Positions 31,775 through 34,295 of a stretch of 64,000 bases of DNA are shown here, in pieces. Position 1 is the stretch's first letter; each line of letters opens with the position of its first letter. The position numbers and the translations under genes are program-made. The stretch lies in IMG/VR virus record IMGVR_UViG_3300020165_001964; one strand, 5' to 3'. The stretch comes from a virus. Below the pieces are notes generated by a model. It was not told the DNA's origin and did not search any database. It saw nothing but the letters and a program-made list of their open reading frames with translations.

Positions 31775-32215
31775 ATGAAGAACATAATCAAAAACACAAG
31801 TAAAGGATTCACATTGATTGAATTAGTAATGGTTACAATCATATTAGGAATCTTAGCAGCAGTGGCATTACCGAGATATCAAGAGACAGTTGATAATGCA
31901 GAAGAAACAGCAGAAAAAACATTTGTCGATATGGTGTGGGCGGGGTGTGAACAAGAATCATCTGAAAGATTGACTGCGTTCGGACTTGAAGCATGGCCTT
32001 ATAATCCATTGACAGTAATTGGAAGAAGTCGTAATCTATCAGTTACATTGTTCGAGGGGATACCCGATGAAGATAATGAGTGGCAGTTTAGTGTAGATGC
32101 AGTTGGTGAACCAGCAATATTTCATCAAAGAAGAAATGATGAAATCTATTACTACACATATGATTCATTAACATTTGAATTAGCTGAACTACCTACTCTA
32201 TACACCAATGAGTAA
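31775..32215 (+). CDS. Type IV pilin (prepilin N-terminal cleavage/methylation motif)
   Basis: KG|FTLIELVMVTIILGILAAVALPRY is canonical. Confidence 0.9.
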   Translation: MKNIIKNTSKGFTLIELVMVTIILGILAAVALPRYQETVDNAEETAEKTFVDMVWAGCEQESSERLTAFGLEAWPYNPLTVIGRSRNLSVTLFEGIPDEDNEWQFSVDAVGEPAIFHQRRNDEIYYYTYDSLTFELAELPTLYTNE

Positions 32216-32630
32216 ATCAGTAAACACGATAGAATTAGGCCTCACTGCAGCTATTATGATTGTGGTGGGGTTTGTTTTATTTCAACCTGATATTACTTAT
32301 ATCGATGACAAACCTACAATGAAAACATTCTATGATTTTCCACTACAGGCGTGGTTAGATACTGATAGAGGTGGTGATGTTGTTAAGGTTAGATATTTGG
32401 TAGATAGAACAAAAACTAAATTATATATGTTTGATAAGTATGGTAAAATAGTACATAAACAACCGATATCATTGAGTCCATATGGTGATGGTAGAGAACG
32501 AATAGAAACTTATGTATGGAAACTATATCGTACAGAGTGGACAGATAGAATTGGTGCTGGTGAATATGGTATAGTGGTTGGTACAGATTTTGACCATAGG
32601 GGAATATCCATTGAGATTGATATACCTTAG
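32208..32630 (+). CDS. Membrane-anchored protein, degenerate pilin-like N-terminus plus small beta domain
   Basis: NTIELGLTAAIMIVVGFVLF TM segment; overlaps the pilin stop codon. Confidence 0.5.
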   Translation: MSKSVNTIELGLTAAIMIVVGFVLFQPDITYIDDKPTMKTFYDFPLQAWLDTDRGGDVVKVRYLVDRTKTKLYMFDKYGKIVHKQPISLSPYGDGRERIETYVWKLYRTEWTDRIGAGEYGIVVGTDFDHRGISIEIDIP

Positions 32631-32859
32631 TTTATTAACAATATTATATTCACAAGATTCCTTAGATGTTGAACTGAACTTAGATAGTTTGTGGGAAAAC
32701 TATGAGTGGGAAGAAATCCAAGAAGTTACAGATGTATATGCTGAAGTAGAACAAATCACAGCAGTTGCAGGAGTTCGTGGTTCTGAGGCAAAGTATGAGA
32801 TATTCAAGTATCTATACTACAGAAAATCAATGAAATCAAAAAAAATGAAAAAAAATTAA
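32611..32859 (+). CDS. Small secreted protein
   Basis: Probable TTG start after AGGGG, signal peptide RLIYLSLLTILYS|Q, TAVAGVRG motif. Confidence 0.45.
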   Translation: MRLIYLSLLTILYSQDSLDVELNLDSLWENYEWEEIQEVTDVYAEVEQITAVAGVRGSEAKYEIFKYLYYRKSMKSKKMKKN

Positions 32860-32929
32860 AATAAAATGTATTTTGAGAATTTATATATATATATATTATT
32901 ATATCAAATGATGATATAGAGTTTTTTGA

Positions 32930-33344
32930 AAATTGAGAAATCGGAAAGTACAGAGAGTAATTAGCTCTGTATGGGATTGGCTGAAAAATGAGTATACTTC
33001 GGAAGCTCATAAGGCAATCTATGATTAGTTCGTGGTGAACCTACTTAGGTGTAAATCATTTCGGTAGTTGAGACATCAATAATCAGAAGTACTTGAAGAA
33101 AAAAACAGAAACGATTCTGTTGACCTTATTGTGGGTAAGGGTAATACTGAAATCCCACTTTATGACTGAACAAACTAAACTCTGAGAGTTAAGGTATTGG
33201 CATAGAGGTTGTACTCGATTCGATGAGATTAACCATCTTGAGAATCACTTTCATAACTGAAAGATGTTAAGTATAAGGTAGAAAAAATCAGAGCTTCAAG
33301 TTGTGAGTAATCGTTAATCTCACATCCCCAAGATTTCCAAATTT
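32930..33344 (+). ncRNA. Large structured non-coding RNA of unknown class (~415 nt)
   Basis: ORF-free and GC-richer than flanks, with about 10 perfect helices including long-range and crossing ones and a cUUCGg motif. Promoter motif at 32871, terminator at 33354. Confidence 0.7.
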
Positions 33345-33353
33345 AGATAATAT

Positions 33354-33424
33354 AAAAAATGGCCACATGATTTTTAGTTTCCACTTATAAATAAACTTAA
33401 AAAACTAGCTGGCCATTTTTTTTT
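33354..33424 (+). terminator. Terminator-like stem after ncRNA
   Basis: AAAAAATGGCCA...TGGCCATTTTTTTTT with a large loop. Confidence 0.6.
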
Positions 33425-33539
33425 ACAAATAATGAAAAAAGATTACATTTTTAGCAATCAAGGTTATACTTATTATTGTATCGATAAATGATACCACTAA
33501 TAAATACAAAATAAACATAAACAAATAGGAGATTAAGTA

Positions 33540-34295
33540 ATGGACTTAAACGCAATTAAAAAACGACTCAATCAGTTACAAACCACAAACAATCGTACTT
33601 CCAGTCTTTGGAAACCACAACCAGGTAAAACTCAAATAAGAATCGTTCCTTATGCATTCAATAAAGATAATCCTTTCATTGAATTATTTTTCCACTACAA
33701 TCTGAACAATCGTTCATATCTTTCACCAATTTCTTTCGGTAGACCAGACCCAATTGAGGAGTTTGCTCAGAAACTAAAAGGAAGTGGTAGTAAAGAAGAT
33801 TATCAGCTATCAAGGAAACTTGAAGCAAAGATGAGAACTTTTGCACCAGTAGTAGTTAGAGGAGAAGAGAAACAAGGAGTGAAATTTTGGGGATTTGGAA
33901 AGACAGTTTATCAAGAACTTCTTTCTATAATCGCAGACCCTGATTATGGTGATATCACCGACCCAGTAAATGGTCGTGATGTTGTTGTGGAATTTATCAC
34001 AGCTGAAGAAAGTGGTGCGAGTTTTCCAAAAACTAACATTCGTGTCAAACCTAATCAAACATCGATTTCTGATGAACCAGATGTACTTGAATTGGTTAAA
34101 ACCCAACAAGACATCAAGGAAATCTATCAAGAGTTAGCATATGATGACCTTACAGACGTGCTGAATGAATGGTTGAATCCAAATGAGGATTCTACTGAAA
34201 CAGAAACTAAAGAAAAAGAAGTTTCTACTTCAGAACTTTCATCTGCCAAAGTAAGTAATACAGGTGATGCTTTTGACGAATTGTTCAAATCGTAA
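33540..34295 (+). CDS. Single-stranded DNA-binding protein (gp32-like)
   Basis: LWKPQPGKTQIRIVP, VKFWGFGKTVYQEL, DITDPVNGRD and an acidic tail ending FDELFKS. Confidence 0.8.
   Translation: MDLNAIKKRLNQLQTTNNRTSSLWKPQPGKTQIRIVPYAFNKDNPFIELFFHYNLNNRSYLSPISFGRPDPIEEFAQKLKGSGSKEDYQLSRKLEAKMRTFAPVVVRGEEKQGVKFWGFGKTVYQELLSIIADPDYGDITDPVNGRDVVVEFITAEESGASFPKTNIRVKPNQTSISDEPDVLELVKTQQDIKEIYQELAYDDLTDVLNEWLNPNEDSTETETKEKEVSTSELSSAKVSNTGDAFDELFKS

Follow-up and report, generated by a model that had tools for sequence, protein, structure and literature searches.

A large pseudoknotted RNA of the manA family, probably composed of two nested units, upstream of a gp32-like gene in an uncultured marine phage

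The DNA considered here is the viral record IMGVR_UViG_3300020165_001964 of IMG/VR, analysed as a single stretch of 64,000 nucleotides (nt) and referred to below as the window. All of its long open reading frames (ORFs) lie on the + strand and its gene content is of phage type. One stretch of 680 nt (32860-33539) contains no conserved ORF, judged from the ORF list and from comparison with homologues. Its upstream neighbour is an ORF of 93 amino acids (aa; 32578-32859), and its downstream neighbour is the gene for a gp32-like single-stranded-DNA-binding protein (SSB; 33540-34295, + strand; Pfam gp32, E 3.9e-13). Genes for RecA, a 5'-3' exonuclease and a DnaB-type helicase follow, forming a replication/recombination block headed by the locus described here. 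The ORF-free stretch encodes a structured RNA of ~415 nt, with ~520 nt from promoter to terminator. An earlier note, made from the sequence alone, had described this element as a stand-alone, large, pseudoknotted RNA upstream of ssb, and its conserved structure, promoter-like site and terminator agree with that description. The element belongs to the known manA family (RF01745), with two manA-like units nested one inside the other; it is probably transcribed on its own and acts as a folded particle that may self-assemble.

Homologues were obtained from marine viral contigs by a search with the SSB protein, which returned 80 loci; ~35 of these retain a homologous gap of ~700 nt with 65-88% identity. 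A 22-nt motif from the first hairpin of the inner unit matched at least 117 further contigs. Following the removal of sequences ≥97% identical, the alignment referred to as A2 holds 65 full-length homologues. The longest ORF inside the RNA varies between 23 and 98 aa among homologues and codon-position periodicity is absent, so the earlier description of the region as ORF-free stands.

The structure of this large pseudoknotted RNA is conserved far beyond chance. RNAalifold, applied to 21 sequences, predicted 102 pairs, of which 57 show compensatory changes. A model of 126 pairs was assembled from this prediction, the Rfam alignments and an unbiased scan of all column pairs, and the top-ranked stacks of the scan are the same helices as those of the model. 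Across the 65 sequences, 93.2% of the cells are paired, compared with 77.7% in shuffles and 36-44% when the partners are slid. The covariation score is 0.485 for the model, 0.194 for the shuffles (0/500 reach the model) and ~0.09 for slid partners. Changes on both sides occur at 85 of the 126 pairs, the corresponding values being a mean of 65.1 in shuffles and 27-41 with slid partners; the covariation among regions upstream of ssb that the earlier note had called for is thus present. The paired cells include 648 G-U and 116 A-C combinations, and because G-U far outnumber A-C, the folding molecule is the + strand RNA. The minimum free energy (MFE) of the + strand is -101.9 kcal/mol (z -2.83, 0/100 shuffles as good), against a z of -1.98 for the - strand.

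A cmscan search of the whole window against Rfam returned a single match above the curated threshold, to manA at 33130-33328 (58.8 bits versus 55.2, E 2e-12). No other Rfam family was matched, and ARAGORN found no tRNA or tmRNA genes in the window. The absence of tRNA and tmRNA noted earlier therefore holds, while the statement that no known RNA could be recognised does not. The homologues score 55-73 bits against the manA model, some of them below the threshold. When the 5' half (32949-33128) is searched alone, it matches manA model positions 1-157, truncated at the 3' end, as the sole significant family (26.5 bits, E 2.6e-5). The 5' halves of two divergent homologues also match manA (L007, E 4e-4; L035, E 2e-4). 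Because the 5' halves of the window RNA and of both these homologues match manA on their own, the RNA is considered to hold two manA-like units, an outer and an inner one. Aligned directly, the two units have little in common at the sequence level outside the CUGAA junction, and their relatedness consequently rests on the covariance model.

The manA RNAs occur nearly exclusively in marine metagenomes and T4-like cyanophages, and their complexity and placement before genes led to the proposal that they are cis-regulatory (PMC2864571). The long-range GGGAG...CUCCC stem of the family is present here as GGGAT 32973-77/ATCCC 33324-28. The CUGAAUAA junction, followed by a second hairpin and UAAGG, occurs in both units, as GCTGAAAAA...CATAAGG in the outer and ACTGAACAA...GTTAAGG in the inner. 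The three-hairpin junction with GUGGUG and uaACCA loops is likewise present, with the loop sequences divided between the units. The outer junction carries an invariant GTGGTG and a GACA loop, the inner junction GTTGTA, TTAACCA and TAAC, and the stems covary. The last two hairpins, which have complementary loops, correspond to 33104-21 and 33303-23 and belong to the outer unit only. When Rfam aligns the 3' unit, the model's outer stem ([[[[[ ]]]]]) is deleted and its eighth helix is poorly aligned.

The manA Stockholm alignment of 2010 already includes ocean-sampling scaffolds of the same RNA type as the window (PMC2864571), and both family and subtype were therefore already known. One such scaffold contains the terminator motif GAUUUUUAGUUUCCAC and the start of a gp32-like gene. 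Together with the Rfam match, this overturns the suggestion in the earlier note that the RNA might be a new class. Just the 3' unit was aligned in 2010; the 5' unit was left as flank and the pseudoknot columns are gaps. The long-range stem was labelled 'pseudoknot?' at that time (PMC2864571). No description of a nested two-unit layout was found in the searched literature mentioning manA RNA, and this architecture appears to be new.

The features described in the following are all on the + strand. The entire RNA is enclosed by an AU-rich closing helix (32930-42/33332-44) with the core GAAATC at 32937-42, which confirms and extends the end-to-end pairing of GAAATC with GATTTC proposed earlier. 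RNAduplex gives a duplex of ≤-6 kcal/mol in 94% of the 65 homologues and in 20% of shuffles, and the two strands of one sequence pair more stably than strands taken from different sequences. The helix is kept despite sequence changes, for example as TTTGGAAT/ATTCCAAA. A conserved 5' leader, AGTTTTTTGA(A/C)AATT (32920-32934), lies just ahead of the closing helix and consists of invariant or near-invariant columns. The de novo scan and the alignments yielded no covarying partner for this leader or for the A-runs. In most homologues the leader contains a TTGACA-like hexamer, just downstream of the predicted transcription start. RNAalifold also joined the 5' U-run (32922-27) to the ribosome-binding site of the SSB gene, a pairing judged to be a U/purine artefact because the only changes are from G-U to A-U.

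The outer unit begins with the hairpin TACAGAG/CTCTGTA (32949-71; manA model positions 1-26), which is 95% paired and covaries at 5/7 pairs. The long-range stem GGGAT/ATCCC ([[[[[ ]]]]] in Rfam) spans ~350 nt and is 100% paired; a GC pair in 58 sequences is replaced by AU in 7, both sides changing together (GGAAT with ATTCC). The outer CUGAA junction (32980-33015) fits the manA consensus GaCUGAAUAA...UAAgG and comprises the second hairpin (32988-93/33005-10), closed by 32980-82/33013-15 and followed by UAAGG. This hairpin is 100% paired with covariation at 5/6 pairs, and its closing pair is GC in 36 sequences and AU in 28. The outer three-hairpin junction (33022-33085) has a closing stem (33022-27/33080-85) in which 6/6 pairs covary. 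Its hairpins lie at 33028-40 (3/4 pairs covary), 33041-67 (variable) and 33068-79 (GACA loop; 4/4 covary), and the GUGGUG loop of the first is identical to the manA consensus.

The eighth helix of the outer unit, ACTTGAAG/CTTCAAGT (33091-98/33294-301), is 96.5% paired, covaries at 6/8 pairs and, in the de novo scan, ranks second of all stacks by total covariation. Unlike the Rfam model, in which this helix closes a small hairpin, it here surrounds the entire inner unit as well as the small hairpin. The latter, AACAGAA/TTCTGTT (33104-21), corresponds to manA's inner hairpin of the eighth helix; it carries the loop ACGA (33111-14) and has at least 5 base pairs in 63/65 homologues. The last hairpin, the ninth helix of manA, is GTGAG/CTCAC (33303-23; 100% paired, 3/5 pairs covary), and its 11-nt loop, which contains TCGT (33311-14), fits the manA consensus UAuacAguAAU.

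The inner manA-like unit (33123-33279) is closed by the stem 33123-29/33273-79, and its helices are 86-100% paired with covariation at most pairs. It consists of a first hairpin with a conserved 18-nt loop (33131-58), a CUGAA junction with its hairpin (33165-95) and a three-hairpin junction (33198-33269). The loop of the inner second hairpin forms the pseudoknot CTCTGA/TCAGAG (33180-85/33288-93), which is 100% paired and covaries at 3/6 pairs (CG 37/UA 26; AU 36/GC 20/UA 9). Its 3' strand directly adjoins the 3' strand of the outer stem at 33294-301.

The RNA thus shares with manA the first hairpin, the GGGAG-type long-range stem, the CUGAAUAA junction with UAAGG, the GUGGUG junction, the last two hairpins and an origin in marine phage. 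It differs in having two units, the second nested in the eighth helix of the first, and in a long-range stem that spans ~350 nt compared with ~170 in manA. The inner unit is without last two hairpins of its own, the pseudoknot is missing from the Rfam model and there is an extra closing helix. A possible further difference from manA lies in the RNA's own promoter-like site and terminator, with the next gene having a separate promoter-like site, so that the RNA does not look like an evident 5' untranslated region.

Most of the twelve helices drawn in the earlier note are found again in this model, with nine confirmed, one doubtful and two rejected. Apart from the first and the small hairpin of the outer unit, those borne out include GTGGG/CCCAC and CTTTCA/TGAAAG by covariation on 65 sequences, the eighth helix, the inner closing stem ACCTTAT/ATAAGGT (5/7 covary) and CTCTGA/TCAGAG, which is a true pseudoknot. 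The helix ATGAG/CTCAT, proposed around a cUUCGg loop, is 100% paired with covariation at 5/6 pairs, and only the conservation of its loop fails. The pairing ATGATT/AATCAT is just 60% paired, the real partner of 33022-27 being 33080-85. A crossing helix of 10 base pairs, TGAGATTAAC/GTTAATCTCA, is 70% paired, and its strands are better supported as 33224-28/33236-40 and 33311-14/33111-14. GATTG/CAATC is doubtful or to be rejected; it shows covariation nowhere, and the 7 sequences that break its first pair are precisely those in which the competing GGGAT/ATCCC covaries.

Few contacts in the RNA are as well supported as the loop pair ACGA 33111-14/TCGT 33311-14, which is 100% paired and covaries at 3/4 pairs (AU 34/GC 29/UA 2; CG 47/UA 17; GC 62/AU 3). 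By cryo-EM, manA RNAs of <200 nt have been reported in a preprint as decamers, as octamers and as an icosahedral cage of 60 subunits, and these assemblies are built from pentamers through the intermolecular kissing loops L5-L7' and L8-L9' (10.64898/2026.07.01.735769). The loops of the Rfam manA consensus are complementary in two combinations, GUGGUG with uaACCA (UGGU/ACCA) and UaCUguA with UAuacAguAAU (aCUgu/acAgu). If the loops are numbered from this consensus, 33111-14/33311-14 would be the counterpart of the L8-L9' contact. Both L5-L7' and L8-L9' have putative counterparts here, of which that of L8-L9 covaries strongly. The constructs of the preprint are of <200 nt with one unit, whereas the present RNA has 415 nt and two units.

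The outer GUGGUG loop is complementary to the inner TTAACCA loop, and the inner GTTGTA is complementary over 3 nt to the outer GACA. In either pair the loops change together in a single clade, ATAGTG accompanying GTAACACTT in 5 sequences and GTTATA accompanying GATA in 2. This offers a thin hint that what links separate molecules in single-unit manA may link the two units of this RNA.

The RNA is preceded by a sigma-70-like site (32873-32902) with 10/12 matches, consisting of -35 TTGAGA (32873-78), an 18-nt spacer and -10 TATTAT (32897-902), with an A-rich tract before it. The promoter blocks ATTTTGnGA and ATATATATnAAT are conserved at fixed spacing in homologues. In the window, the frequency of the loose promoter pattern is no higher than chance, and a phage-wide promoter class therefore receives no support. 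The RNA is followed by an intrinsic-terminator-like hairpin (33354-33424; MFE -16.5 kcal/mol) with the core TGGCCA 33360-65/33410-15 and nine T at 33416-24, the outer stem of which shows compensatory changes among homologues. The promoter-like site and the U-tailed hairpin are conserved in most homologues, in accordance with the earlier claim that the RNA has a promoter and a terminator of its own. Inside the terminator, the 16-nt motif GATTTTTAGTTTCCAC (33369-84) does not vary in most homologues, is present in a single copy in the window and is not explained by structure alone. The motif could be a protein-binding or processing site.

The region 33442-33539 holds a separate promoter-like site for the SSB gene, with blocks resembling those of the RNA's promoter, together with a 5' hairpin and the ribosome-binding site. 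The short hairpin (33477-33495) lies right after the SSB -10-like site in every homologue (L003-L035) with differing sequence, as GTATC...GATAC here and as ATCAAG...CTTGAT or TTTCACT...AGTGAAA in other loci. It is apparently a conserved hairpin at the 5' terminus of the SSB mRNA. With a promoter-like site and a terminator belonging to the RNA, and another promoter-like site in front of the SSB gene, a stand-alone RNA is most likely, and not a classical leader.

Twelve runs recorded as RNA libraries contain part of the stretch. In the four runs mapped, which come from four studies, the RNA is covered by contigs with 100% identity to the window at 32907-33367, 32934-33334, 32955-33361 and 32984-33286. 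The flanking genes lack identical cover in runs X6, X7 and X15, where an uncovered part proves nothing, and run X1 covers everything. As the ends of the contigs disagree between studies, they yield no transcript ends or expression levels. The coverage of RNA libraries that the earlier note had proposed to examine is thus found, without the transcript ends.

A same-strand SSB gene follows the RNA in 127/136 loci at a median distance of 195 nt, and the genes upstream are variable, being conserved in 18/108 loci. Where SSB does not follow, the RNA lies before an HSP20 chaperone gene (L095:2567-3040), an unknown ORF then a Mom-family gene (L178:860-1642, - strand) or a large unknown ORF (L140:2727-4844). 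The presence of ibpA chaperone genes after manA was noted in 2010 (PMC2864571). The 44 loci whose SSB is most distant (69-75% identity; L037-L080) include 37 with a gap of ~97 nt and no RNA. These short-gap loci show no manA within 3 kb, and L069, L071 and L076 retain the long gap. Genes for tRNA lie just downstream of SSB in two RNA-less relatives (L050:3771-3843, L063:3770-3842) and upstream of the long gap preceding SSB in a third locus (L076:1165-1236), and the 2010 manA scaffolds also show tRNA-like sequence beside manA.

The closest isolate by RecA is Microcystis phage Mel-JY01, with 55% aa identity and the same order of SSB, RecA, exonuclease and helicase genes. As the nearest isolate is only this similar, the source phage is taken to be of an uncultured marine type. 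The gap upstream of the Mel-JY01 SSB gene is only ~117 nt; no manA match was found in this phage, a result of little weight as the same search was silent in every control genome. A blastn search of 32860-33440 against 50,697 phage records gave zero matches. Further upstream in the window, a 146-aa ORF (31775-32215) matches Pfam PF07963, the prokaryotic N-terminal methylation (prepilin) motif (E 2.5e-7), and this pilin cassette sits upstream of the RNA in only ~16/108 related loci.

Taken together, the most probable account is that of a manA-family RNA with two nested units. The RNA would be its own transcript, running from the sigma-70-type promoter (32873-902) to the intrinsic terminator (33354-424), and not a leader of SSB. 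The outer unit supplies the first hairpin, the GGGAT/ATCCC stem, the CUGAA junction, the GUGGUG three-hairpin junction and the last two helices. Its opened eighth helix holds the small hairpin and a complete second core, tied back by the pseudoknot 33180-85/33288-93. Like the solved single-unit manA RNAs, the folded particle may join copies of itself by loop-loop contacts, and the GUGGUG/ACCA-type loops may join both units within one molecule. By analogy with those RNAs, the mode of action is most likely that of a folded particle, possibly self-assembling, rather than a classical riboswitch.

Several points weigh against this account. The loop and helix numbering relative to the preprint is inferred from the Rfam consensus. 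Covariation cannot separate intramolecular contacts from those between copies, and the candidate loop pairs that would join the units rest on one co-change event each. The RNA-library contigs indicate presence only, and DNA can be carried in such libraries. The regular position of SSB after the RNA makes a cis link and terminator read-through possible, and manA was first judged to be cis-regulatory and a riboswitch candidate (PMC2864571).

The last two points lead to the alternative of a cis-acting leader or riboswitch, in which the two units would be sensors of a metabolite or another signal that control terminator read-through into SSB, their pairing sharpening the response as in other tandem riboswitches. 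The terminator between the RNA and the SSB gene would suit such a role, as would the constancy of SSB downstream beside the variable upstream genes. However, this terminator begins 10 nt past the closing helix and no shared alternative pairing was found. The sole candidate for an antiterminator, GGAAA 32943-47/TTTCC 33378-82, is without covariation, and in alignments A1 and A2 there is no conserved or covarying alternative pairing with the terminator or the ribosome-binding site that could form an expression platform. The SSB ribosome-binding site is ~190 nt from the RNA, beyond the promoter-like site, and conserved promoter-like blocks stand between terminator and gene. In other loci this RNA stands ahead of HSP20, Mom-like or unknown genes, while related phages carry the same SSB gene with the ~97-nt gap and no RNA. 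No ligand of manA was found in the literature searched. A leader role is therefore considered unlikely.

Tandem riboswitch aptamers such as the glycine riboswitch have two related units side by side, followed by an expression platform. Two related units are common to both, but in the present RNA one of them encloses the other, and no such platform was found. The gene 32 mRNA of phage T4 carries a small pseudoknot as translational operator in the gene's own leader. Both are cases of a pseudoknotted RNA upstream of a gp32-type SSB gene; in the present case the RNA has 415 nt, and a terminator and a promoter-like site lie between it and the gene.

Quite unlikely, too, is a stand-alone monomeric RNA that binds protein, with the phage SSB, a host RNA-binding protein or a host defence factor as the target of a decoy or scaffold, and with its loop pairs intramolecular. 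The RNA's own promoter-like site and terminator fit this, and its linkage to the SSB gene favours it. Invariant unpaired nucleotides in loops and junctions (e.g. the 18-nt loop 33136-53 and GAAG 33002-05) point the same way, as does a 16-nt terminator motif invariant beyond structural need. No result points to a protein partner, however, and the solved manA RNAs assemble protein-free. A DNA-level element, with inverted repeats acting in DNA as a replication origin or recombination site, would suit the AT-rich, repeat-laden head of a block of SSB, RecA, 5'-3' exonuclease and DnaB genes; it is highly improbable, as the excess of G-U over A-C fits + strand RNA only, folding is better for the + than for the - strand, there is a match to an RNA family's covariance model, and pseudoknots and loop-loop pairs covary, which also counters the DNA-element objection raised in the earlier note.

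The earlier note had also compared the RNA with the GOLLD and ROOL types. These are large ornate RNAs which form RNA-only cages through kissing loops, with intermolecular contacts supported by covariation (PMC12286853). Neither family gave a match at the gathering threshold in the window, or at E up to 10 in 32700-33600, with the Rfam models, and the present RNA is smaller. The comparison survives as an analogy, given the manA cages reported in the preprint, and not as a likeness of sequence or model.

Returning to the nested two-unit RNA, a bolder extension may be put forward tentatively. The RNA would be a natural covalent manA 'dimer', in which the GUGGUG/ACCA contacts are intramolecular and copies are joined by the pair 33111-14/33311-14 to form a closed shell of RNA, produced from a small gene beside the replication genes. 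If this were true, manA RNAs would be stand-alone cage-forming phage RNAs and no riboswitches.

The manA family has long been filed as a riboswitch candidate; cages were reported in 2026, in the preprint, and the present locus adds a natural nested two-unit version. This RNA is abundant in marine viral contigs, as the matches to the 22-nt motif indicate. The locus supplies covariation for the long-range stem of manA that had been doubtful, and for a loop pair that would match the intermolecular contact in the cryo-EM structures. Its gene-like signals, a promoter-like site and a terminator, speak against a simple leader role. The RNA is a ready construct for structural work and offers a route to ask whether manA acts in trans during infection.

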